IMG/VR virus record: IMGVR_UViG_2778261176_000007 | Coordinates: 1 to 21,023 of that record | DNA: 21,023 nucleotides | Source: a virus | Lineage: Duplodnaviria > Heunggongvirae > Uroviricota > Caudoviricetes | Strand: one strand, 5' to 3' | In this document: positions 2,400 through 13,700 of the stretch, piece by piece | How the letters are laid out: each line of letters begins with the position of its first letter | Numbering within the stretch: position 1 is the first letter of the stretch | Notes under the pieces: generated by a model | Databases searched by the model: none | The model's input: the letters and a program-made list of their open reading frames with translations, nothing else | What the model was told of the DNA's origin: nothing | Translations under genes and position numbers: made by a program

Positions 2400-2697
2400 G
2401 TTTAGACCTCGATATTTTGAAAATCTGAACAACGTTACCGCGTGTTTTAATAACCGCGGCAAGCATGACAGCGTTGATAATGACCTCAGATAAATCCACA
2501 GCCATTGGCGTGCGTAACCAGATTGCATAGACGACACGAACAGGAATACTGGCCGCAGCAACAATAAGGAAATAAGCAAGCCACCCTCCCCATCTTCGAT
2601 GTTGAGAGCCGTTACGCCGGAATGTGACAACGCGAATTGCTATGCCAGTACAAATAACTGCATTGGTGATAAGCAAAAAAAACTCATGCGTTACCAT
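2389..2697 (-). CDS. Holin-like small membrane protein (lysis cassette)
   Basis: 102 aa with 2-3 predicted TM segments and a charged C-terminus. Overlaps the endolysin start by 11 nt and the upstream membrane-protein gene by 14 nt. Position immediately upstream of the endolysin. Confidence 0.55.
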
Positions 2698-3088
2698 CGT
2701 CTTTTCTCCCCGGAATTAAATCGCGTGGATTGTCTGAACGGTGGTAGAGCCATATACCAATACGCACAGCGACAATTGCTGACACGAATGCGCCAGCAGA
2801 GAAAACAATCCCTTTTTCAAAAGAGTCCTGCGTGATGGTAGGGATCAGGCTGGCTATGCCGATAAGAATTGATGCTGCTGGTTTGTAGAAAAGAAGTCCA
2901 CAGAGAAAGCTAAGCATCGATAAGAGTACGCGACGATGAATTGGGTACTCTACCGCAGAGGTAACAAAAATTACCGCACCAGCAAGAGCACCGAGCGCCA
3001 CCTCTGGCGGAACGCCTACGATAACTGCAGCAAGAGAGCTCACACTAAGCCATTGATTTAAAGAATCAGTAGTTAGATGGGCTGACAT
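2684..3088 (-). CDS. Holin / lysis-associated multi-TM membrane protein
   Basis: About 134 aa from the ATG at 3086-3088 (the track ORF begins at a GTG at 3097). Three to four hydrophobic helices and a charged C-terminal tail ([18 protein letters not shown]). First gene of the lysis cassette. Confidence 0.5.
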   Translation of the reverse strand: MSAHLTTDSLNQWLSVSSLAAVIVGVPPEVALGALAGAVIFVTSAVEYPIHRRVLLSMLSFLCGLLFYKPAASILIGIASLIPTITQDSFEKGIVFSAGAFVSAIVAVRIGIWLYHRSDNPRDLIPGRKDDGNA

Positions 3089-3317
3089 AATGAACACCGT
3101 TTATTACGCATAACAATCTCCTTACTATTGAAGATTCACACATAATAAACCATTTAAGGATAATAGTTACCTCAAAACGCTGTATTTCTACCTTCTACGG
3201 CAATGAAAATTTCGTTCAGAAAATGGTCTAGTGTACCTCTCAGTCACAATTAAAGAAGAAAGAAGCCGAACTTACTTCGTAATAAGCAAGCCGGCTACTA
3301 AGATTAATCCTCAATAT

Positions 3318-6074
3318 TTAGCTACTTTCAAGCATTGCAAGACGTGATTCTATTTTTTCGATTCTTCTACGCAAATAAGCTGACTCAAGCCATAAACACT
3401 GGTCAGTACGGATACCCCACCTATTTCCAGCCTTGCAAACCAGAGTTCGCTCTTCTGTTTCGTATTCTTCTTCCATCTCAATTTCGACGCCATCCACAAC
3501 TTTAGTGATCATCCTTACCGCCATCACTGGCGCGTATTTATCATCCCATTCATCGTAACAGAGAAGGCCAAATCTGGTTCCATCAATCCCATGCGCGAGG
3601 AAAGTGTCTCTCACTTGTTGTGCTATAACACCAAAATGCCAGCGGGCACCATCTCCCTTTTCCCTGACGGCATCAAGCCAGCGAAAAGCTACAATCCTGA
3701 TATCTCCCCATGCATCCAGAATTGCATCACCTTCATAACCACGAGACATATACAAGCTGAGCTCACTTGTACTAATCGGTTCACTTTTTTCTCTACCATC
3801 TGATGTGTTTATCGAACCGTTCGCAGAATAAACCTGTGCCCATCTAAATGATGGTGCACCAAGAGATTTGCTGTTATCAATAATTGGTGAAAAATTACCT
3901 TTAATAGCAATATTTCCAGAGTCGCCGAATATATTAATAACTGCAGAGTCATCACCATGGTTTTTTACGCTTAAGTTTCTTGATGAAATATTTATATCTT
4001 TGTTATATCCACTAACATTAATCCATCTTTTACCATCAATGTGATACCCGTAAATATTTCCGTTTGATTGTTCGTCAGGTGACTCTCTAAGAACAATAGC
4101 ATCTACTCCAGACGACCATTGTATTTTTGTATCTGTAGGCCTCCAGTTCTTTATAATGAACGAACCATCAGTAAACTCCGTTTTTATTTGTCTATTGTCT
4201 ACAAATGCGTCTCTTGGTTTAAACTCACTTGTGTTAACGCTGCTCTGAAGATCAGAAGCAAAAAATCTAAGATTTCCTGTATAACCCTTAGTCTCGGTCA
4301 GGTTATACGCAATCATAATTCCATTTTCAAACTCAGATGATGTTATTTTAACATCACGGCAATCACCAAAAATGCAATTTCCTTTATCAAATGTTGTTTG
4401 AGCTTTGAATTTATCAAACCTTAAATTACGAACAGGGAAACCATCAACCTCTAATGCAAAGGATGCAGGAAGGCCAAAGTATTCTGATGGCTTACCTGAT
4501 GTATGATCAAGAGTAGTGGCTACTGTATTCTCAAAAACAGTCCCGCTAAAATTATTACCAATTGACGGAAACCTGATTACACTTATTGTACCTTGTATTT
4601 CAGGAGAAATACCAGATAGTGTGATGTTAGCTCCATCAAATGATGCATCTGAATACGTATATACTGATTCACTGCCAGCAATTTTAAACTGTTTAACTGA
4701 AGTTATTCTCATCGACTTTTTATGTTTAAATGTCACTGAGCTTTCAGTATTACTTACAAGATCAATCTGAGGGCTATTCCTTATCGCGATTCCTGACTGG
4801 ACATAAACGTTATTAAAGTGCGTTTTTTCAGGATTTCCCTTCATTGAAAGGCTACCGTCATTTTCTGTCAGTAGTAGTCCTTTTACCCTCCAATAGCCGA
4901 CAATCTGTACGTTATCAATAACTGAATCACAGCTATCGTATACATGCAACCCTATATCCCAGTTATCACCCAATGAATAAGAATCAGGGTTATTGTATCC
5001 TTCAATACCATTTTTACTTACCATTATTCTCAGATTGCGTAACTGTGATGCCCTGTTGATACTAACAGCTACGCTCATGGCTTTTGGTGTAGCAGGAGTA
5101 ACACCTACAGAATCTTCATTTGTAAACTCAGTGAACTTACAAGATATCCCTTCAACAATTTTAACTGGTCTTTCATTAGAGATGTTAAAAAAATATTTGT
5201 TTTTTTCTCCATCACCAGTAAATATAAGATGGGTTCCTTTACTCCAACTTTTTAATAATCTTTCAGGCGCTGGTCTATATGTATCCCAATAATCAATGCC
5301 ATCACCAATTAAAGACACTCCAGGAGGCACATCTATGTTCTTAGAAATCATCCATTTACCTGCAGGTATTCTAACGACACTTGCACCAGAATTTATCGCA
5401 TTAATTAACCATTCAGACGCATCAACTTCAAAATTTAATGCAGCATATCTTTGCTCAAACGGAACAAAATCAAGAGCGTTAACGTTATCCCGCATCTTAT
5501 CCTGGAACGTTCGGTATACTGCTCCAGAACCATACTGAATAAACCAACCAAAACCACCAACAACTCCGGCGATTGCAGCATCAACATAATTGCGCATTGA
5601 TCGATTATTTACAGCATCCTGCTCAAGTGATGGATCTGCAAGGTTAGAAATTTTGTTTTGCTTTGCATCGTAATATTTTGCAAGCAAAGATGGTTTCATC
5701 AATGCACGTCTGAACCATCCAAAACATTGCTGGATCAGCATCGTCAGGTAGTCAAATGCATCCTCATGAACTTCGGGGAAAAATTTTCCCTGATTGCGAA
5801 GATCAGTCTCCTGCACCACATCAAGCACACGCTCTATCGTGATTCTCCAGCCAGCAGCAAGCGGCGACGGAAGAACCACAGAACCGCCACTATAAGTGCC
5901 CGCCCCTGTTACCGTATAACCGGTATCCAGAACCAATTCTGTTACGTTCCCGTTCAGGTCAGACACCTGAACAACCAGGTCGGATTTTTTGAAAATACGG
6001 AAGGTATACGGAAATGATGTCGTAGTGCCGTTACCTGTGTATTCGTTGTGGTCAACTTCGGTTGAGACCGTCAT
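3318..6074 (-). CDS. Tailspike / tail fiber with T7 gp17-like N-terminal adaptor, central putative depolymerase domain and C-terminal intramolecular chaperone (peptidase S74-like)
   Basis: 918 aa. The N-terminal 120 aa align by eye with the T7 gp17 N-terminus (YTGNGTTTSFPYTFRIF versus YQLDGSNRDFNIPFEY). The central region is AT-rich (about 3800-5650). The last 160 aa or so (SDGREKSEPISTSELSL...WHFGVIAQQVRDTF...) resemble the autocleaving chaperone domain of endosialidase-type tailspikes. GGAGA SD upstream of the ATG at 6072-6074. Confidence 0.9.
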   Translation of the reverse strand: MTVSTEVDHNEYTGNGTTTSFPYTFRIFKKSDLVVQVSDLNGNVTELVLDTGYTVTGAGTYSGGSVVLPSPLAAGWRITIERVLDVVQETDLRNQGKFFPEVHEDAFDYLTMLIQQCFGWFRRALMKPSLLAKYYDAKQNKISNLADPSLEQDAVNNRSMRNYVDAAIAGVVGGFGWFIQYGSGAVYRTFQDKMRDNVNALDFVPFEQRYAALNFEVDASEWLINAINSGASVVRIPAGKWMISKNIDVPPGVSLIGDGIDYWDTYRPAPERLLKSWSKGTHLIFTGDGEKNKYFFNISNERPVKIVEGISCKFTEFTNEDSVGVTPATPKAMSVAVSINRASQLRNLRIMVSKNGIEGYNNPDSYSLGDNWDIGLHVYDSCDSVIDNVQIVGYWRVKGLLLTENDGSLSMKGNPEKTHFNNVYVQSGIAIRNSPQIDLVSNTESSVTFKHKKSMRITSVKQFKIAGSESVYTYSDASFDGANITLSGISPEIQGTISVIRFPSIGNNFSGTVFENTVATTLDHTSGKPSEYFGLPASFALEVDGFPVRNLRFDKFKAQTTFDKGNCIFGDCRDVKITSSEFENGIMIAYNLTETKGYTGNLRFFASDLQSSVNTSEFKPRDAFVDNRQIKTEFTDGSFIIKNWRPTDTKIQWSSGVDAIVLRESPDEQSNGNIYGYHIDGKRWINVSGYNKDINISSRNLSVKNHGDDSAVINIFGDSGNIAIKGNFSPIIDNSKSLGAPSFRWAQVYSANGSINTSDGREKSEPISTSELSLYMSRGYEGDAILDAWGDIRIVAFRWLDAVREKGDGARWHFGVIAQQVRDTFLAHGIDGTRFGLLCYDEWDDKYAPVMAVRMITKVVDGVEIEMEEEYETEERTLVCKAGNRWGIRTDQCLWLESAYLRRRIEKIESRLAMLESS

Positions 6075-6177
6075 GTTAAATCTCCAGATAGTCGCAGCAC
6101 CCGTTGCGCCGCATATCTGGTTATTCTATTACCTGAAAAACCACATATGGATAGAAAGACTGTAAATACGAATAGAT

Positions 6178-6194
6178 ATTACCTTTCGGGTAAT
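6178..6194. promoter_or_regulatory. 17-bp palindromic operator-like site ATTACC-TTTCG-GGTAAT (copy 1 of 5)
   Basis: Perfect 6-bp inverted arms with a 5-bp spacer. Located in the divergent region between the tailspike gene and the small Ant-C-like gene. Confidence 0.55.
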
Positions 6195-6232
6195 TTGCAA
6201 AACGTGCTGGATAGCAAACAAATTATTTGCTA

Positions 6233-6248
6233 CTGTATAAATATACAG
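6233..6248. promoter_or_regulatory. LexA (SOS) box CTGT-ATAAATAT-ACAG
   Basis: taCTGTATAAATATACAGtt differs from the LexA consensus CTGTATATATATACAG at one central position. It sits 22 nt upstream of the ATG at 6270 and contains a TATAAAT -10-like hexamer. Confidence 0.6.
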
Positions 6249-6269
6249 TTATTGCATGGAGAAGATAAG

Positions 6270-6527
6270 ATGCAGCAGTATCACTATCCACTGGAAGACG
6301 GATTTACCGAAAGGATTCACACGCCGGGAGGCGTCAGATCACTAGTGGAGGGATCGCACTTGATGAAATTACTCCGGGATCTCGATAAGGATGGATTTAA
6401 TGTCGATGGCCCACTTGCCGAACTGACTGCACTGATTAACTACGTCACCAGCTCACAGATGTCTATGCGGGATCTGCAAACACATCTCGACTATTGTGCC
6501 GAACAATTACGAAAACAAACCAGATAA
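6270..6527 (+). CDS. Small stand-alone protein homologous to the C-terminal domain of the two Bro-N antirepressors (candidate SOS-controlled antirepressor-like factor)
   Basis: 85 aa from the internal ATG (the track ORF starts at 6147 but would cover the operator palindrome and LexA box). GGAG SD 9 nt upstream. Alignable by eye to the Ant C-termini (LAELTALINYVTSSQMSMRDLQTHLDY versus AAELTTMFCYIVGVSKCLRDIQTHAEY). Confidence 0.5.
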   Translation: MQQYHYPLEDGFTERIHTPGGVRSLVEGSHLMKLLRDLDKDGFNVDGPLAELTALINYVTSSQMSMRDLQTHLDYCAEQLRKQTR

Positions 6528-6556
6528 GGTTTGCAATTACCAAGTGGAGTGCTTAT

Positions 6557-6575
6557 ATTTACCTTTGCGGTAAAT
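6557..6575. promoter_or_regulatory. Palindromic operator-like site ATTTACC-TTTGC-GGTAAAT (copy 2 of 5), at the start of the ant1 leader
   Basis: Perfect 7-bp arms. About 45 nt upstream of the conserved structured leader element. Confidence 0.55.
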
Positions 6576-6600
6576 TTACATCGCACTCCTCTTGTGCCAT

Positions 6601-6685
6601 AGTAATCGGGCACTGGCAAAATCCAGTGCCGGGATTGGCGTCCCGGATTACTAAAAGGCGCATTCACCGCGCAAGCGGTTTTTTT
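6601..6685 (+). ncRNA. Structured leader RNA element upstream of ant1 (c4-like antisense-RNA candidate): closing stem, two hairpins, and a hairpin plus U7 terminator
   Basis: Stem AGTAATC (6601-6607) pairs with GATTACT (6646-6652). Hairpin A is GGCACTGG-caaaat-CCAGTGCC (6609-6630). Hairpin B is CCGGGA-ttggcg-TCCCGG (6629-6646). Terminator-like ACCGC-gcaa-GCGGT followed by T7 (6666-6685). The stems are conserved in the inverted ant2 copy while the loops differ (compensatory pattern). Confidence 0.4.
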
Positions 6686-6842
6686 ATGCGTATAGCACGG
6701 CCACATTCGTATTATGGTGGGCTGTGTGGGGGCACCGAAAGGTGCGCCGGGTCCTTTTAGCCGGTTACGCCAACCCTGCACAGCTCACCACCAACCGATT
6801 GGCGTCGGTAGTGGTGATTAACCAGACTAAAAGGTAACCACT

Positions 6843-7538
6843 ATGACAGCTACAAAAAGCACGTCCATTTTTTCTTTCGAATCCCAAGCCGATATACGAG
6901 TAATCGTCATTAATGGTGAGCCATGGTTTATCGCTTCAGATGTTTGTCGGGCTATAGGCATAGCAAACCATCGAGATGCTGTTCGAAAACTTGATGATGA
7001 TGAGAAGGGCGTCGCTTCAACCGACACCCCTGGCGGTGAGCAAGAATCGATCATCATCTCCGAGTCAGGCCTCTACACACTGATCCTCCGCTGCCGCGAC
7101 GCAGTGACACCAGGCACTATCCCCTACCGCTTTCGTAAATGGGTTACAGGTGAGGTTCTTCCTCAGATCCGCCGCACCGGAAGCTACATTAAAAACTCGC
7201 TCCCGCAGGAAGAACGCATAAAGATGGTTGCCGACCAGGTAGCCAACGCCACGGCGTCAGCAGTAATGCAGGCGATGAAGATAGAGAACAAAACCTACAG
7301 CGCCCCGCTGAAGCCCGGCTACCGCAGTTTGATTCACTCGCCGTCTGGTGTTCTCGGCCTGACGGAGAACTCACTGCTGATGAATCTGCTGAACCAGTTA
7401 CAGGAAGACGGGCACGACGTATCGGGCGCGGCGGCGGAACTGACCACCATGTTCTGCTACATCGTCGGTGTGAGTAAATGCCTGCGTGATATCCAGACCC
7501 ACGCGGAATACATCAACGACAAGGCAGGGGTCTTCTGA
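6843..7538 (+). CDS. Antirepressor-like protein with Bro-N N-terminal domain (ant1)
   Basis: 231 aa. N-terminus IFSFESQADIRVIVINGEPWFIASDVCRAIGI...ESGLYTLILR is a Bro-N-type motif. AAAGGT SD before the ATG. The C-terminal half is nearly identical (about 95 percent nucleotide identity) to the inverted paralog at 8652-9344. Confidence 0.85.
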   Translation: MTATKSTSIFSFESQADIRVIVINGEPWFIASDVCRAIGIANHRDAVRKLDDDEKGVASTDTPGGEQESIIISESGLYTLILRCRDAVTPGTIPYRFRKWVTGEVLPQIRRTGSYIKNSLPQEERIKMVADQVANATASAVMQAMKIENKTYSAPLKPGYRSLIHSPSGVLGLTENSLLMNLLNQLQEDGHDVSGAAAELTTMFCYIVGVSKCLRDIQTHAEYINDKAGVF

Positions 7539-7547
7539 CAGAACGGC

Positions 7548-7570
7548 GGCACAGGGATGTGCCTTTAAAT
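7548..7570 (+). terminator. Putative terminator of ant1 (hairpin GGCACA-ggga-TGTGCC followed by TTTAAAT)
   Basis: 6-bp stem about 10 nt after the ant1 stop. The T-tract is interrupted, so this is weakly supported. Confidence 0.35.
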
Positions 7571-7604
7571 AATTCTGTACAGATTGCAGGTGAATAGCGT
7601 ACTA

Positions 7605-7619
7605 TTACCCCAAAGGTAA
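7605..7619. promoter_or_regulatory. Palindromic operator-like site TTACC-CCAAA-GGTAA (copy 3 of 5), upstream of the AT-rich two-gene cassette
   Basis: Perfect 5-bp arms with a 5-bp spacer, about 120 nt upstream of the ATG at 7737. Confidence 0.5.
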
Positions 7620-7736
7620 GAAAGTTGATTTGTAACATTTTAGTTTGTAGTTACCGTGATGGTTTTGCTGCAGAAAGTTAACTAGTCAAAATCACACCGT
7701 ATGTAAGTCACGTCTGTTCCCGTATGGGAGGATGAT

Positions 7737-7955
7737 ATGTTTAAATTTGATATGCAACTCAACCAAAACTATGCCTCTTTTTACCATCCAGAAACTGGTA
7801 AAGCTGTTTTCGTTGACTCTTTCGATAATGAAGAATTTGATATCAGAATTGGGACCCTACGCCAAAGTAAGCATGTTGCTACTGTACGTGCATCCAATGA
7901 TGATGAATTAAATCAAAAAATAAGTGAGGCGACCTCCCGTTATCTATGTCTATAA
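7737..7955 (+). CDS. Hypothetical protein, 72 aa (first gene of AT-rich moron cassette)
   Basis: Strong SD GGGAGG 7 nt upstream of the ATG. AT-rich codon usage unlike the flanking genes. Its stop overlaps the start of the next ORF (ATG at 7946, TAA at 7953-7955). No recognisable domain. Confidence 0.55.
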   Translation: MFKFDMQLNQNYASFYHPETGKAVFVDSFDNEEFDIRIGTLRQSKHVATVRASNDDELNQKISEATSRYLCL

Positions 7956-8323
7956 CAGAACAACAACTCATTGATCTTGAGGATGAGATTAACGAGATCT
8001 TGCAAGAAGATGCGGCAAGAATTCACTTTTCATTTCACGCAGCATATGAACGCCTGAACGACGAGAGGAACAAACCGCCAATTACTCTTGCTGAGCTTGA
8101 AGATGTGTTTAAATCGTTTATATCTGCACATCTGCAGACTGTTTTGGATTTTGCTGAAGGTACAACTTTCACCATAAAGTGCAACAAAAGCGCCCTTCAT
8201 TTTCCTTGCGCCATTGTACACGAAAGAGAGTTTGGGAAAACGTGGGTTATCCAAAACGTCATTACAGCCATGAGGAAAGTGGGATTCAAGTCTAAAGATT
8301 CTATTATCCTCGAAGTTAATTAA
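7946..8323 (+). CDS. Hypothetical protein, 125 aa (second gene of AT-rich moron cassette)
   Basis: Translationally coupled to the 72-aa ORF. Acidic N-terminal half. Followed immediately by an intrinsic terminator. No recognisable domain. Confidence 0.6.
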   Translation: MSITEQQLIDLEDEINEILQEDAARIHFSFHAAYERLNDERNKPPITLAELEDVFKSFISAHLQTVLDFAEGTTFTIKCNKSALHFPCAIVHEREFGKTWVIQNVITAMRKVGFKSKDSIILEVN

Positions 8324-8344
8324 GCCCGCACTGAGGGCTTTTTT
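8323..8344 (+). terminator. Rho-independent terminator of the two-gene cassette
   Basis: Stem AGCCC / GGGCT with loop GCACTGA, followed by TTTTTT (8339-8344). Directly after the stop codon at 8321-8323. Confidence 0.7.
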
Positions 8345-8416
8345 ATGGACGAAACAAAAGTCAGTGCTACACTCATTGACGCCACATTGAGGTGGCTTAT
8401 AGATGGAAATTTCACA

Positions 8417-8578
8417 ATGAAAAAAGCATTTGCTGCACTGTTCGTTTTGTTGTCTCTGGTAGCTTCAACTCAGGCCTTTGCCGGTCGTTGTCAGCACGAC
8501 AGCGATACTGCCGCTGACGGCTCCCGCTGCGGTGGGCGTTCTGCGGACTCCCGCCCGGGCGGCGGTGGCATTCGTTAA
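8417..8578 (+). CDS. Small secreted Cys/Gly-rich peptide (about 53 aa), hypothetical
   Basis: Signal peptide MKKAFAALFVLLSLVASTQAFA then GRCQHDSDTAADGSRCGGRSADSRPGGGGIR. Weak SD. The upstream in-frame ATG at 8345 lies inside the preceding terminator T-tract, so 8417 is the more plausible start. Confidence 0.3.
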   Translation: MKKAFAALFVLLSLVASTQAFAGRCQHDSDTAADGSRCGGRSADSRPGGGGIR

Positions 8579-8600
8579 AAACAAGGCCGCGAAAGCGGCC
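8577..8600 (-). terminator. Rho-independent terminator of ant2 (minus strand)
   Basis: Hairpin GGCCGC-gaaa-GCGGCC (8585-8600) followed on the minus strand by TTGTTTTT. About 50 nt downstream of the ant2 stop. Confidence 0.5.
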
Positions 8601-8651
8601 TGTGACATGTCACGCTAGTTTCGTTTTGCACGTCCCTGTGCCGACGTTCTG

Positions 8652-9344
8652 TCAGAAGAACCCTGCCTTGTCGTTGATGTATTCCGCGTGCGTCTGGATA
8701 TCACGCAGGCATTTGCTCACACCGACGATGTAGCAGAACATGGTGGTCAGCTCCGCCGCCGCACCCGATACGTCGTGCCCGTCTTCCTGTAACTGGTTCA
8801 GCAGATTCATCAGCAGTGAGTTCTCCGTCAGGCCGAGAACACCAGACGGAGAATGAATCAGGCTGCGGTAGCCGGGCTTCAGCGGGGAGCTGTAGGTTTT
8901 GTTCTCTATCTTCATTGCCTGCATCACTGCTGATGCTGTGGCGTTGGCTACCTGGTCGGCAACCATCTTTATGCGTTCTTCCTGAGGGAGCGAGTTTTTA
9001 ATGTAACTTCCGGTGCGGCGGATCTGAGGAAGAACCTCACCTGTAACCCATTCAAGAAATCTGAATGCTCTCGTTCCCTCAGTCATTGCCTCTTTGCAAC
9101 GCAGAATAAGGATGTAGAGACCTGATTCTGAAACGATGGATAGTTCTTGTATTCCACCAGGGGTCTGTATTGAATACAGCCCCTTTTTGTTCCAGCCTTT
9201 TTTATCAAGTTTTCTCGCTTGTGTAACATCAATATTCAAAGCATTGCACACATCTTTGGTGACAAACCAAGGTTCTCCGTCAATCATGAACATACGGATC
9301 TGGCAGGATGACTCAAAGGAAAAGATGGAAGGTTTGGTATTCAT
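8652..9344 (-). CDS. Antirepressor-like protein with Bro-N N-terminal domain (ant2), inverted paralog of ant1
   Basis: 230 aa from the ATG at 9342-9344 (the track ORF starts 15 codons upstream at a TTG). AAAGGTGA SD. The Bro-N domain has diverged from ant1 while the C-terminal 130 aa differ at only 2 residues. Confidence 0.85.
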   Translation of the reverse strand: MNTKPSIFSFESSCQIRMFMIDGEPWFVTKDVCNALNIDVTQARKLDKKGWNKKGLYSIQTPGGIQELSIVSESGLYILILRCKEAMTEGTRAFRFLEWVTGEVLPQIRRTGSYIKNSLPQEERIKMVADQVANATASAVMQAMKIENKTYSSPLKPGYRSLIHSPSGVLGLTENSLLMNLLNQLQEDGHDVSGAAAELTTMFCYIVGVSKCLRDIQTHAEYINDKAGFF

Positions 9345-9498
9345 AGCGATCACCTTTGTAGTTAGGTTAATCACCACCGCTGAGACCAATCAGATGGTGG
9401 TGAACTGTGCAGAGTTGGTCTTACCGGCTACAAAGGAACCCGGCGCACCTTTCGGTGCCCCCACACAGCCCACCATAGAATAGGTGCGCTTTACACAT

Positions 9499-9584
9499 AA
9501 AAAAACCGCTTATGCGGCATATGTGCCTCTGTAGTAATCCGGGAGACCAATCCCGGCACTGGATTTTGCCAGTGCCTGATTACT
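9499..9584 (-). ncRNA. Structured leader RNA element upstream of ant2 (twin of 6601-6685), c4-like antisense-RNA candidate
   Basis: Same closing stem and two hairpins as the ant1 leader, with loop B changed from ttggcg to ttggtc. Terminator-like CCGC-ataa-GCGG followed by U7 on the minus strand (9499-9517). Confidence 0.4.
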
Positions 9585-9611
9585 ATGGCACAAGAGGAGT
9601 GCGTTGTAAAT

Positions 9612-9626
9612 TTACCTCAAAGGTAA
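9612..9626. promoter_or_regulatory. Palindromic operator-like site TTACC-TCAAA-GGTAA (copy 4 of 5), at the start of the ant2 leader
   Basis: Perfect 5-bp arms. Equivalent position to copy 2 in the inverted arm. Lies in the divergent region between ant2 and the 9774 gene. Confidence 0.5.
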
Positions 9627-9773
9627 TAATAGACGCAGGTGAATATCAAAATCAACCACATTTGGTTAAGGTGTGTAAAAGAGCCACCAGCGAGAAATTG
9701 TACCGCGATGTAAAATAACGAGAATCTGCTGGCTTACAACCAGCGATGTTTCAAATTTGTCACTACTATCAAC

Positions 9774-10172
9774 GTGCCATTCCACGGCGTAGAACTTTAT
9801 GTTGTCAATCACAACGGCGAACCGTACACCCCAATGAAACCTATCGTTGAGGGAATGGGGCTAGACTGGAAATCTCAACATAAGAAGATTTCTCAACGCT
9901 TCTCGAAGGGTATGGTGGAAATCACCATACCTTCTGCCGGTGGGGTGCAAGCCATGATTTGTATGGCTTTACGAAAATTGGCAGCTTGGTTGAACAGCAT
10001 CAGCCCTAACAAAGTCCGCCCTGAAATCCGCGATAAGGTAATCCAGTATCAGGAAGAGTGTGATGATGTGCTCTATGAGTACTGGACTAAAGGCCATGTG
10101 GTTAACCCGCGCAAAGCTAAAAAGGTGTTGCCGGGTAAAATCACTACTGAGCAACAGGAGGTATACACTTAA
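9774..10172 (+). CDS. Phage antirepressor-like protein (P22 AR N-terminal-like domain), hypothetical
   Basis: 132 aa. The motif LRKLAAWLNSISPNKVRPEIRDKVIQYQEECDDVLYEYW resembles antirepressor N-terminal domains as I recall them. The first in-frame start is a GTG with no clear SD, so the start is uncertain (an internal ATG lies 20 codons in). Confidence 0.5.
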   Translation: MPFHGVELYVVNHNGEPYTPMKPIVEGMGLDWKSQHKKISQRFSKGMVEITIPSAGGVQAMICMALRKLAAWLNSISPNKVRPEIRDKVIQYQEECDDVLYEYWTKGHVVNPRKAKKVLPGKITTEQQEVYT

Positions 10173-10196
10173 CACTTGATCACATTAGCACAAAAT

Positions 10197-10213
10197 ATTA
10201 CCTTTAAGGTAAT
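10197..10213. promoter_or_regulatory. Palindromic operator-like site ATTACC-TTTAA-GGTAAT (copy 5 of 5), immediately upstream of the membrane-anchored moron
   Basis: Perfect 6-bp arms. Ends 20 nt before the ATG at 10233, so it overlaps the expected promoter/RBS region. Confidence 0.55.
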
Positions 10214-10232
10214 GTTATTGTGAGGAAAAGCA

Positions 10233-10760
10233 ATGGAAGTTTTCTTAATCATCGTCGGCATCGTGATTATTAATTTTGTTTTTTTATTTATTGCAAAAAA
10301 ACAAAAAAGTAACGATATGCATGTTTCTACAACTGATGATCTTACCTTTGTAGAGCATGCACTGAATGTATCAGGATATAAACTCACTCCATACGGAGCT
10401 GGTGTATCACTCATGTCTTTAAGTAACGGTTTTTCAAAAGAAGAAACATTTTCACATATAGCTTTGATGGCTCTTTCTCAACACGCCAAAGTCGCAGGTA
10501 GTGACGCAATTGAGCTTAGTAAAGTTAGCATTCGTGCGATGTCGATAGCTGAAAACTTAACTAAATTATTCAGGAAAGGTCTTATTCGATCAGAAATATA
10601 TAAAAATGATTTGAATGCTATCATGGCTGTCAGCACAATTAATGAAAACCAAGAGGATTGGATTTCCATAGTTCTGGAAAGCAATAGCACATCTAACAAG
10701 GATACTATTGCTTTGCCGATAAGTGCAGAAGCTTCTTTAGAAGCCATAAACAGCCATTGA
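10233..10760 (+). CDS. Membrane-anchored hypothetical protein (moron; candidate superinfection-exclusion or abortive-infection factor)
   Basis: 175 aa. N-terminal TM helix (VFLIIVGIVIINFVFLFIA) followed by KKQK, then a soluble domain. GAGG SD 7 nt upstream. Strongly AT-rich coding sequence. Convergent with the structural operon. Confidence 0.65.
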   Translation: MEVFLIIVGIVIINFVFLFIAKKQKSNDMHVSTTDDLTFVEHALNVSGYKLTPYGAGVSLMSLSNGFSKEETFSHIALMALSQHAKVAGSDAIELSKVSIRAMSIAENLTKLFRKGLIRSEIYKNDLNAIMAVSTINENQEDWISIVLESNSTSNKDTIALPISAEASLEAINSH

Positions 10761-10781
10761 AAGAACTCCAATAAATATTGA

Positions 10782-13700
10782 TTAACGCATCACCGGATCC
10801 ACTTGGTTTATTAGTGGCGCAATCCAGAACAGGTTATTGCCGGGTATCAGGGTTCGGACATTATGCACAATACGATCACCGGCATCACCATTCAACACTC
10901 CTGCGGTCACATCAATGATGCTATCCGCAAGACCAAATGACGGTCCGAATAGAGATCCTACGAATCCACGACTGGCATACCTAGACTGTGTGCCAGTGCC
11001 AAATAAAGCCCCCAGCCCAACAGCACCACCAGTAGCCTTTTCAGCCATGTTGTTATATTCCATCAATGGCCCAAGAATACCGGATCTATCTATACCCTCA
11101 AGCACCAGCTTCTCTGGTGACCAGTCAACATTTTTCCCTTTCGATGCTTCTTTAAGCGCATAGACCAGTGAGCCAAGAGCAATCTGAAATGCAGTGCCAT
11201 AATAAAATTGCGCAGTTCCTTCCTGTAACCCACCAAGTAGCGCACGGTTGTATGAAGCCGTTGTGAATGATTTAAACTGAAATATCGTTCGCCCCATTGG
11301 AGTACTCGCCCATAAAGGTGTGTCACCAATACCGGGGGTGATGATAGTGTTATTAACGTCTTTCAGAACCGCTGACTGGAATACTCCGGCAACGTACTGA
11401 TCGTCCCATTTATCAAAGTTACCAATGTGCCATCCATCAATTACCTCACCATGTTTCTCGAACTCACTGCGAATACGCGCAGCCATATTGTCGTTGATAC
11501 CGAGTTTTGCCATGCGACGTGCAGAAAACGCACCAGACAAAATACCGTCTGACGTGAGCATTCCGTTCATGGATTTGTTTATGTCATTAAATCGATCCAT
11601 GAGTGTCAGCTTGCCGAAGGCATCAGTAATTCGCTCCATTCCTGCTTCGACTGCTGTTGTCCTGGAAGAACTGTCAACAAGATCACCAATTGCACGAGAA
11701 CGTGAATGTAGTACAGTTTCCAATCCAATCCCCATCTTCAACATCTCTTCTTTGCTGGCCTTAAATGCCGGTGATTGGGATATCTGAGAAGCATAGCCTT
11801 TCATGGAGTTACGGAAACCATTAACCATAACCCCTCTGGCCAGATCTGGAATAGCTGATACTGTCATTCCACCGAGTTTGGTCGTGAAGTTCACATCCCG
11901 CAGAAAAGCGCCAGCACGAACAAAAAACGAAGACGGGTCATCAGGCATACCATATGTACCAACAAGACGATCGCGTAATGCTGTTATGTCTCTGAGATCA
12001 TTTGCTCTTGATTTTGAAAGTCTGGACTGTTCTTTCCGTAATTCCTTTTCGTACTTTCGCATTAATGAATCGAGTTTACCCTGAGGAACAACTTCACCAT
12101 TGCTCTCATAACGTGCTTTCAGATTTGCCACACTTTCGTCATATTTCGCCTTTATTTTTTCAGGCACTTCCCGTAACAGACTGTCATATTCGTCCTCAAT
12201 TAATTGCAGACGCTCTGTCATAGTTCGTTTGCCAAATGTTCTCGTCAACTCAATTTCTGCTGCCGCTTCACGGATATGACGTTGTAGAACGTAATTCACA
12301 TCACTTTCGAGATAATCCCTGATAAGACTATCAGGCACATTTAATGTTCTTTCTTTCGTACTACCTGCAGCTTTTACAGAAAATACGCTGACAAAATCCT
12401 GTGGAACCTTAGCACCAGTAATTTTATTAATTACGATATCCGCTGCAATTTCAGCATCCTCAGGATCCAGTGTTTTATTGCCTCTCGACCACCAGTCAAC
12501 CAAAATACGTCGAAATTTATCGCGTTCACTGATTATTTTTCCAACTTTATATATACGTGGGAAATAGCTTGCCTGGCCTAATGCTTTCAGTCCTTCATCT
12601 GGCGGCAATAAACCAAGCTTTTGCATTTCAACCTTCACCCGATTTAATACAGTTCGCATCGCCTGCGCCGTTTCCTGAACAACAGGATTAGCATGCACAT
12701 CACCGCTTCGCATAGCATTCCCAACCTGCTGACGAAATGAATCAAAACTCATGTCACCACCATCAGCTTTATACTTTGCGTATGCCTGTTTATTTCCGAC
12801 AACAACAGCAGCTTCTTCACGCTGCCATCCACGTGTACGGGTTTCTACAGCTACCGGTGTTTCAATCCCCCTTTCATTTCCTTTAAGGGTGAAATTATTT
12901 TCGGCTAACTCCAGCGTTGTTTTTCGCACTGTCTTGGACGGAGACTCCATTAACCTTGTCAAAGGAGTAAGATAGCTCCCTGCTTTCCATGCAGCCTTTC
13001 CAACCACCCCACCGGAAACAGGGGTTAAATCATCCAGAGTCGCTGTATCAATTTTCATAGCACCAACACTACCACCATCAGAAAGCGAAGCGGCAGCCCT
13101 GTCAGTCGCTGATGTAATGCTCATATTATCAAGAGCATCAGCAACCTCACGCGTGGCTGCAGCCCGGACGGATGGCGAAAGCGCAACACCAGCACTGGCA
13201 AACACGCCGCTCATCATCGCACCCGCTGCAACGTGAGCGGCACTTTCACCCCATGAGCGTGTTATTTGCTGATTATTCAGCACAACCTCGCTTAATGCTG
13301 TACCGGCTGCACCAATCGCAATCTGTGAGCCAATACGCGCCAGTGCCCCTCCTTGAGCACCTGGGATAAACATTGACGCAACAGTAACCGGGTCAAAAAG
13401 CATCGCTGTTGCACTGGCAATTCCACCAGCTAAGCCTGCTTCAGAGATAAAACGCCGATCTTCATTTTCATCATCTATCTGCTGCTTAATCCACGCCGTT
13501 TCCTCTGGCGATCGGGAATCTGCAAATTTCGCCCCCCAGTATTCATAACCGTGCAACTCATTTTTATCAGCATATGGGTTATAACCCTCGACCGGTTCAA
13601 ACTGTCTGGCAGGACGGAAAAAACCAGCCAGAATATTGTTCTGTCGTATTGCTGCGGCAAGCAATGAAGGCTCTTTGGGACGAGGTTCAGGGTTCTTACC

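Follow-up and report, generated by a model that had tools for sequence, protein, structure and literature searches.

A mosaic inverted duplication in an epsilon15-like Escherichia coli prophage is probably a pair of RNA-gated antirepressor modules of the immI type

We analysed a 21,023-nt stretch of viral DNA (IMG/VR record IMGVR_UViG_2778261176_000007; hereafter the window, to whose full length all positions refer), which belongs to an epsilon15/phiV10-like (Uetakevirus) E. coli prophage, and in particular the inverted duplication in its accessory region between the tailspike gene and the virion-protein genes. This duplication probably consists of two convergent paralogous secondary-immunity (immI-type) modules, in which antirepressor genes are gated by RNA and the mosaic of similarity between the copies arose by module swapping between related E. 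coli prophages; we put the probability of this reading at roughly three in four. The parts are known, namely, two RNA families and a structurally characterised antirepressor domain, and their combination is new; no description of this combination was found in the literature searched for this phage group. Related loci that were compared are denoted by L-numbers (L006, L031, L062, and so on).

Global alignment showed that the arms, at 6557-7562 (+ strand) and 9629-8628 (- strand), are inverted copies of each other, and that similarity falls to 39% past their inner ends and 43% past their outer ends. A repeat search of the window returned the inverted pairs 7005-7562/8628-9185 (558 nt, 88% identity), 6554-6653/9532-9631 (100 nt, 93% identity), and 6713-6758/9432-9477 (46 nt, 96% identity). 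Each arm encodes an antirepressor with an N-terminal Bro-N domain; the two ORFs are convergent, and both are intact. The convergent arrangement is also present in complete E. coli genomes, and an assembly artefact is therefore excluded.

The region upstream of each ORF gave matches above threshold to the Rfam families isrK (6610-6685, + strand; 9499-9575, - strand) and C4 (6710-6795, + strand; 9393-9480, - strand). The C4 matches covered the full-length RF01695 model in both arms, and the minimum free energy folds agreed with it. The elements of the two leaders are as follows.

Left arm (+ strand)
6597-6685: isrK/c4-a1b1 element (RF01394, 77.9 bits, gathering score 50; fold z-score -4.5)
6635-6641: a1, UUGGCGU, a decoy in isrK hairpin 2
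6651-6658: b1, CUAAAAGG, a decoy in isrK
6666-6679: isrK intrinsic terminator with U run
6710-6795: C4 antisense RNA, specificity 1a (RF01695, 79.2 bits, gathering score 45; fold z-score -4.8)
6753-6760: b', CCUUUUAG, antisense, in the loop of C4 hairpin 2
6767-6773: a', ACGCCAA, antisense
6799-6834: target region, perfectly complementary to a' (7 nt) and b' (8 nt)
6799-6805: a2, UUGGCGU, in a hairpin loop
6827-6834: b2, CUAAAAGG, over the Shine-Dalgarno sequence, 8 nt 5' of the ATG at 6843

Right arm (- strand; a and b sites in + strand positions)
9499-9588: isrK/c4-a1b1 element (RF01394, 74.7 bits), with a1, UUGGUCU, at 9544-9550
9518-9505: isrK terminator
9393-9480: C4 antisense RNA, specificity 2b (RF01695, 78.6 bits; fold z-score -4.1)
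9428-9436: b', CCUUUGUAG
9415-9421: a', AGACCAA
9353-9389: target region, complementary to b' of this arm over 9 nt and to its a' over 7 nt
9383-9389: a2, UUGGUCU
9353-9361: b2, CUACAAAGG, over the Shine-Dalgarno sequence

Taken together, these elements appear to reproduce the layout of immI of phage P1 and of the isrK region of Gifsy-1, in which a promoter with a palindrome is followed by isrK (the a1b1 decoy), C4, and a2/b2 sites over the Shine-Dalgarno sequence, here that of the Bro-N gene; only 47 nt separate C4 from the Bro-N ATG. The predicted duplex energies within the window were -18.9 and -21.2 kcal/mol for the cognate pairings, versus -9.7 and -10.1 kcal/mol for the crosswise pairings. 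The only changes in the intramolecular stems of the leader were from G-C to G-U. The compensatory changes that a first-pass annotation of this DNA had seen in the leader are therefore real but chiefly intermolecular, the a' and b' sites of C4 co-varying with a1/b1 and a2/b2. Because the arms differ in a' and b' and carry decoys and targets to match, their C4 specificities (1a and 2b) are predicted to be orthogonal in vivo, by analogy with the heteroimmunity of P1 and P7.

Two further observations concern the leader. A short ORF starts from a conserved AUG inside C4 (6714-6821 and 9476-9390 in the window), and one frame of it is annotated as "ash family protein" in phage vB_EcoP_ZX5 (hereafter ZX5). 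The length of this ORF is 35 codons (left arm), 28 codons (right arm), or 14 codons (type-3 leaders), and it stops 22 to 46 nt before the Bro-N ATG; since its length and frame vary with the arm type, it is probably non-coding. A coupled upstream ORF of the orf45 or icd kind was considered and rejected, as it is not conserved as a protein across leader types. Separately, the loop of isrK hairpin 1 occurs in a flipped form, GGCAAAATCC becoming GGATTTTGCC with the stem kept (L021, about 5480-5500; right arm of L019).

Pairing across relatives was compared in a module set drawn from 78 IMG/VR loci that encode the C-terminal domain and from E. coli genome loci, giving 93 modules in 82 loci. Three a' alleles (ACGCCAA, AGACCAA, and GUGCAAA) and three b' alleles (CCUUUUAG, CCUUUGUAG, and CCACUUAG) occurred in six combinations. 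In all 93 modules, the 8-9 nt of b' were all complementary to the Shine-Dalgarno region and the 7 nt of a' to a2, and in 92 of the 93 the 7-nt complementarity of a' extended to both a1 and a2. The sole a1 mismatch belongs to the middle module of L062, whose leader is chimeric (a1 of type a; a' and a2 of type b), and this leader is direct evidence of recombination inside the leader. Every locus with two or three modules (13/13) combined different specificities. This allele table is a natural covariation experiment, which supports pairing between C4 and its target beyond P1 and P7. L062 itself carries three modules (1a, 2b, and 2a) at 2584-6700.

The genes that these leaders precede, together with related genes on either side of the duplication, are listed below.

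6843-7538, + strand: left antirepressor, 231 aa, Bro-N type A (codons 1-98) with an SPC32H-type Ant domain (about residues 150-226)
8652-9344, - strand: right antirepressor, 230 aa, Bro-N type B with the same Ant domain
7136-7562, + strand: left C-terminal conserved repeat including the post-stop hairpin (7547-7562), 95.7% identical to 9052-8628
6270-6527, + strand: stand-alone Ant, 85 aa, outside the repeat (5D50_E, E 1.4e-46 over residues 2-84; PHROG 450)
6233-6248, + strand: LexA-box-like CTGT-N8-ACAG (CTGTATAAATATACAG), 22 nt 5' of the ATG at 6270 (pattern search)
9774-10172, + strand: truncated antirepressor remnant with P22_AR_N only, 132 aa, flanking the right arm outside the repeat (PF10547, E 5e-44)

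Both arm proteins were assigned to PHROG 130, "anti-repressor Ant", and matched the Pfam Bro-N family PF02498 (left, E 2e-21, 76.7 bits; right, E 2e-13, 51.4 bits; cut-off, 25.6). The left protein is identical at 230 of its 231 residues to ORF4 of ZX5, a phage with an experimentally tested repressor, and when ORF4 was overexpressed, lysogeny fell 1000-fold, with a drop of the prophage titre from 1e9 to 1e6, and repressor transcription decreased by 75% (PMC9782041). At residues 150-226, the Bro-N protein matched PDB 5D50_E (E 1e-13), the 86-aa antirepressor (Ant) of the epsilon15-like Salmonella phage SPC32H, which binds the tetramer of the repressor Rep and disassembles it (PMC9638917). Given this homology to a Rep-binding protein, the conserved C-terminal half is probably the repressor-binding domain, rather than the variable N-terminal half to which target recognition had first been attributed. 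The need of this domain to fit one conserved Rep may explain its conservation. The stand-alone Ant upstream of the left arm, which shares 43% identity with the left Bro-N protein over residues 150-223 of the latter, appears to be a third copy of the same domain. The site upstream of it is close to the established LexA consensus; the pattern search found no such box in the arms, and the stand-alone gene was the only one of the three preceded by it. The ant gene of SPC32H is itself reportedly controlled by LexA, a result credited to Kim and Ryu in 2013. In TL-2011b, a relative with the same region, gp10 is a full-length homologue of Rep (E 7e-42).

The P22_AR_N ORF beside the right arm is annotated in RefSeq relatives as a pseudogene lacking its C-terminus, and an intact P22_AR_N gene fused to the same Ant domain is found in TL-2011b (gp42). 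In relatives of the TL-2011b type, the intact P22_AR_N gene and an Arc-like repressor occupy the position of the right arm.

The palindrome TTACC-N5-GGTAA occurs in five exact copies in the window, against 0.42 expected, and a transcription unit begins at each copy. In either arm, two promoter-like sites flank the palindrome, and a promoter-like site is overlapped by it.

6179-6193: palindrome TTACCTTTCGGGTAA, upstream of the small Ant gene, a candidate Rep operator
6531-6559, + strand: left outer promoter-like site, TTGCAA-17-TATATT, at the arm boundary (consensus match only)
6559-6573: palindrome TTACCTTTGCGGTAA, at the outer end of the left arm, the module boundary
6575-6603, + strand: second promoter-like site, TTTACA-17-(TG)CATAGT, inside the left arm, with a mirror site at 9610-9582 (consensus scan)
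7605-7619: palindrome TTACCCCAAAGGTAA, at the start of the cargo cassette
9612-9626: right palindrome TTACCTCAAAGGTAA
9655-9626, - strand: right outer promoter-like site, TTGATT-18-TATTAT (consensus scan)
10198-10212: fifth palindrome TTACCTTTAAGGTAA, upstream of a 175-aa ORF (10233-10760)

Genome-wide, the complete TL-2011b and ZX5 sequences (loci L082 and L086) contain 14 copies each, with 0.9 and 0.6 expected; these are paired on either side of rep and also precede the int, replication, terminase, and ant units. A palindrome equivalent to the one at 7605 lies downstream of the Bro-N gene in TL-2011b (33333-33347) and ZX5 (978-992). By analogy with C1 in P1, we infer that the palindrome is the Rep operator of a dispersed regulon.

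Several points weigh against the interpretation of the arms as RNA-gated immunity modules. The c4-a1b1 family RF03163, which overlaps isrK, scored 45.1 bits in the left arm and 38.4 bits in the right arm, below its gathering score of 46.7. In type-2 leaders, b1 pairs with b' over only 5 contiguous nt, compared with 8 nt in types 1 and 3, and the loop of isrK hairpin 1 has no complementarity to C4. The combination of different specificities in 13 of 13 loci departs only weakly from randomness (random draws would give it with a chance of about 0.04), and these loci are related to one another, not independent. The window does not include rep, and the presence of Rep is assumed from relatives; with no more than 43% identity between the fused Ant domain and the stand-alone Ant, binding of the fused domain to Rep is not certain. 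Finally, the palindrome precedes most operons, and another regulator could bind it.

The mosaic itself bears on how the modules came together. The first-pass annotation had described a three-zone mosaic with a leader about 90% identical, a Bro-N domain diverged to 50-60% amino acid identity, and a C-terminal part about 95% identical with mostly synonymous differences. The duplication, its extent, and the mosaic were confirmed, and the mosaic has more steps: the identity between the arms was 92% in the palindrome and the 5' part of isrK, 65% in the isrK terminator and spacer, 86% in C4, 75% in the a2/b2 target region, 57% (nucleotides) in the N-terminal coding part, and 92% in the post-stop hairpin. 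Over the whole leader it was 82%, lower than first estimated. In a codon alignment of the left and right genes, codons 1-98 shared 55% amino acid identity (pS 0.76, which is saturated; dN 0.38), inside the range given earlier. Codons 99-231 were 95.7% identical in nucleotides and 97.7% in amino acids, and their 14 synonymous and 3 nonsynonymous differences (dS 0.17, dN 0.01) agreed with the earlier description.

Across genomes, the N-terminal types A and B were each nearly invariant (pi 0.9% and 0.09%, respectively) and occurred on either side and with different partners. The saturation at synonymous sites between the types, together with this near-invariance within them, points to old discrete alleles that have been exchanged as cassettes and not diversified in situ, as had been supposed. 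The C-terminal segment, in comparison, forms one mixed pool, with differences between genomes of 3.1% for left-left, 3.2% for right-right, and 3.25% for left-right pairs. The N-terminal type was linked to the C4 specificity in 91 of the 93 modules, the other two being recombinants, and in relatives the module swaps and the upstream flanks switch exactly at the palindrome. Furthermore, the same core between the arms is found behind other arm types in L006, L008, and L034, and the left C-terminus of the window together with its core is near-identical to those of L006 and L008, in which other arm types precede it. The N-terminal domains P22_AR_N, ORF6N, and AntA are joined to the same C-terminus in relatives. 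Homologous recombination, with the conserved 5' leader and the conserved sequence coding for the Ant domain as its two joints, fits the mosaic; divergence after a local duplication does not.

A recent inverted duplication in situ, with rapid diversifying selection on the N-terminal part and the C-terminus held alike by purifying selection or intragenomic conversion, would account for the preponderance of synonymous C-terminal differences (14 versus 3), for the identical copies in L062, and for the closeness of C-terminal pairs within genomes, which differed by 2.59% compared with 3.17% after shuffling (ten genomes, P about 0.001). However, a pS of 0.76 combined with a dN of only 0.38 indicates that the N-terminal segment is older, not faster evolving; types A and B recur nearly unchanged on either side with differing partners; and the C-terminal pair of the window differs by 4.0%, more than the mean of 3.25% between genomes. 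We consider this scenario unlikely. Recent gene conversion as the force keeping the two C-terminal copies of the window alike was rejected on the same comparison of 4.0% with the population mean of 3.25%. The suggestion of C-terminal gene conversion thus holds across genomes (2.59% versus 3.17%; no difference over 398 positions in L062) but not for the window's own pair.

Less probable again is a reading in which the arms are redundant copies in decay that serve no function of their own, one of the modules being silent and the mosaicism neutral. The truncated antirepressor gene next door (9774-10172) shows that decay does occur here, but both arm ORFs are full length with a dN/dS of about 0.06 in the part common to both, both copies of C4 and of isrK exceed the Rfam thresholds by a wide margin, the perfect a'/a2 and b'/b2 matches are kept in both arms, and the arrangement recurs in many genomes.

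The arms had also been proposed as substrates for inversion, and relatives bear this out in part. The segment 5418-8676 of L031 is the reverse complement of 8658-5400 of L065 (98.4% identity over 3,260 nt, with colinear flanks), which is an inversion of the whole arm-core-arm segment with its ends at the palindromes. The forward, L065-like isomer is present in the complete genomes PF9285 and A_5, and in the complete genome MS 196-1 the cargo is inverted beside a left type-B arm; no whole-segment inverted isomer of the L031 type was found at 80% or more in complete genomes. In L062, 1,038 nt of cargo are inverted between type-A and type-B arms relative to L019, L033, and eight single-arm loci. 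The C-terminal copies of L062 show 0/398 differences, and the post-stop segment has moved along with the cargo, as would be expected had crossing-over and conversion taken place within the C-terminal repeat. This case is one metagenome contig, and no such cargo-flip isomer was found at 80% or more in complete genomes. The window's own arm-core-arm combination was not covered at 80% or more in any of 5,426 complete E. coli genomes (best 78%, with a different core). Among the double-arm loci carrying the marker gene, 14 of 17 were in the forward and 3 of 17 in the inverted orientation.

No invertase, integrase, or recombinase gene was found among the ORFs and Pfam matches of 6000-10800 or in annotated relatives; RecT and exonuclease VIII are encoded by relatives. 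Between the arms of the window, the longest stretches of uninterrupted identity measure 86, 47, 46, and 40 nt, which is enough for occasional homologous recombination. The inversions are most simply explained by general or RecT-type homologous recombination. They are supported on an evolutionary time scale, and in this particular strain they may occur. The least probable account is a programmed invertible switch resembling a shufflon or the P1 C-segment, in which frequent flips of the core would choose the operon that expresses the cargo: both orientations do occur in relatives (the whole segment in L031 and L083, the cargo only in L062) and the whole-segment breakpoints coincide with a short palindrome, but the region and its immediate surroundings lack an invertase or integrase gene, the repeats are as long as genes and share identical runs of 86 nt at most, 14 of the 17 double-arm loci share one orientation, and the inverted isomers differ by 1.6% from the forward ones, which marks old events and not on-going switching.

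The core enclosed by the arms spans 1.06 kb. It had been taken for a two-gene cassette but contains three ORFs (7737-7955, 7946-8323, and 8417-8578); a palindrome (7605) and a terminator (8322-8340) also lie within it.

7737-8323, + strand: overlapping cargo ORFs of 72 aa (7737-7955) and 125 aa (7946-8323) (PHROG 14630 and 14518, families of unknown function)
8322-8340, + strand: terminator after the cargo pair
8417-8578, + strand: 53-aa membrane-associated protein with a signal-peptide-like N-terminus (PHROG 14503)
8584-8601, - strand: intrinsic terminator of the right antirepressor operon (7-bp stem with 6 GC pairs, T run)

The core proteins had no match in Pfam, NCBIfam, or PADLOC, and a single-sequence AlphaFold2 model of the 125-aa protein was too poor to use (pLDDT 51). 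Most related loci encode the 53-aa protein (BLAST identity 94-99%) at the distal end of their cargo slot, irrespective of what the slot contains. Relatives carry a YafO toxin-antitoxin system or DUF4760 or DUF2335 genes in the same slot, and the slot is therefore a hotspot. Outside the duplication, the tailspike gene (3318-6074, - strand, 918 aa) is conserved at its N-terminal end (70-97% identity across loci) and variable in its body, and its relatives are annotated as endosialidase, GH28-related, or tail fiber; this variability is the usual swapping of receptor-binding modules, here adjoining the immunity region. A tRNA scan over the window found no tRNA.

Several known systems offer close parallels. 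In P1 immI, the antirepressor operon is repressed by C1 at transcription and by C4 at translation (PMC8198154), and small sequence differences in immI make P1 and P7 heteroimmune (PMC6906374). As in P1/P7 immI (c4-icd-ant1/2), a C4 RNA of family RF01695 in the window lies on the same transcript as its target, with candidate a1/b1 sites upstream and a2/b2 downstream complementary to a'/b', the target at the ribosome-binding site 5' of the antirepressor, a specificity predicted to be set by a'/b' changes with matching target changes, and a putative operator-like site at the promoter. Unlike P1/P7, the window has no icd, its b2 is the antirepressor's own Shine-Dalgarno sequence, its antirepressor is a fusion of Bro-N with an SPC32H-type Ant and not Ant1/2, and its phage is an integrated podovirus and not a plasmid prophage; moreover, there are two modules of differing specificity per genome (three in L062), and both sites are multi-allelic (3 x 3). 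In Gifsy-1, the short IsrK acts in trans on the read-through transcript, whose processed downstream part, STnc1160, is complementary to IsrK (PMC4825925). The Salmonella locus isrK-orf45-anrP-isrJ of this prophage shares with the window an isrK (RF01394) with a leaky terminator, a C4-like RNA (STnc1160 there), and an antirepressor gene, whereas the window has no conserved upstream ORF of the orf45 type and no antQ downstream, and its module is duplicated in inverted orientation.

The Rep-Ant pair of SPC32H (PDB 5D50) comes from the same epsilon15-like group: the window encodes a close Ant homologue with a predicted LexA box, relatives encode a Rep homologue, and both arm proteins carry a C-terminal domain with homology to Ant. 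The difference is that Ant in the arms is fused to Bro-N and would be controlled by C4 and isrK RNAs instead of LexA, and that one genome here holds three Ant-domain genes. P22 immI (mnt-arc-ant, sar) likewise has an antirepressor secondary-immunity region between the virion genes and the tailspike with antisense RNA control, and TL-2011b has an Arc-like repressor and a P22_AR_N Ant at the right-arm position; however, the RNA is C4 here and sar in P22, the window has neither Arc nor Mnt, and its P22_AR_N gene is truncated. The P1 C-segment with Cin and the Mu G segment with Gin resemble the region in having a segment with inverted repeats at its ends, found in either orientation when relatives are compared, but differ from it in that here there is no invertase gene, the repeats are 1-kb gene modules and not short crossover sites, and one orientation is dominant.

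On the favoured interpretation, two RNA-gated antirepressor modules, the region would work as follows, the steps from the C4 block onward being drawn from P1, Gifsy-1, and SPC32H. In the lysogen, a Rep protein like that of the relatives, together with C4, would hold both Bro-N::Ant genes silent. C4, produced from the same transcript, would pair through a'/b' with a2/b2 and block translation, each C4 acting only on its own Shine-Dalgarno sequence and on that of an incoming phage of the same class. The short isrK RNA with a1/b1, ending at a leaky terminator, would compete for C4 as a class-specific decoy. Rising transcription would then allow Ant to be made and Rep to be inactivated. The stand-alone Ant (6270-6527), with its predicted LexA box, would respond to SOS, and any of the three Ant-domain proteins should inactivate Rep, which would provide three separately gated inputs. 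Two modules of different class would widen the range of superinfecting relatives that are silenced and add induction inputs. The specificity and N-terminal cassette would be exchanged through its flanks, the 5' leader from the palindrome to isrK and the Ant-domain coding sequence, and the inverted flanks would occasionally cause gene conversion and flip either the whole segment or the cargo.

A broader proposal is tentative, and we judge the odds to be somewhat against it. Epsilon15-like prophages may use a combinatorial two-site RNA code (at least 3 x 3 a'/b' alleles), stacking two or three orthogonal modules so as to silence the Ant of more superinfecting relatives while keeping LexA, C4-1a, and C4-2b triggers for one Rep-binding domain. 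The alleles might be kept distinct by frequency-dependent selection, and the inverted layout might let recombination shift cargo between operons.

An anonymous inverted repeat thereby becomes a readable regulatory device. The region is also a clean example of how, in a cargo hotspot, cassettes are exchanged and inversion and conversion take place through conserved gene segments that serve as recombination joints. From the allele table one can predict which prophages ought to be immune to one another's antirepressors, and the arrangement suggests how a prophage couples one repressor to several induction signals, which bears on E. coli prophages including relatives in enterohaemorrhagic E. coli (EHEC).

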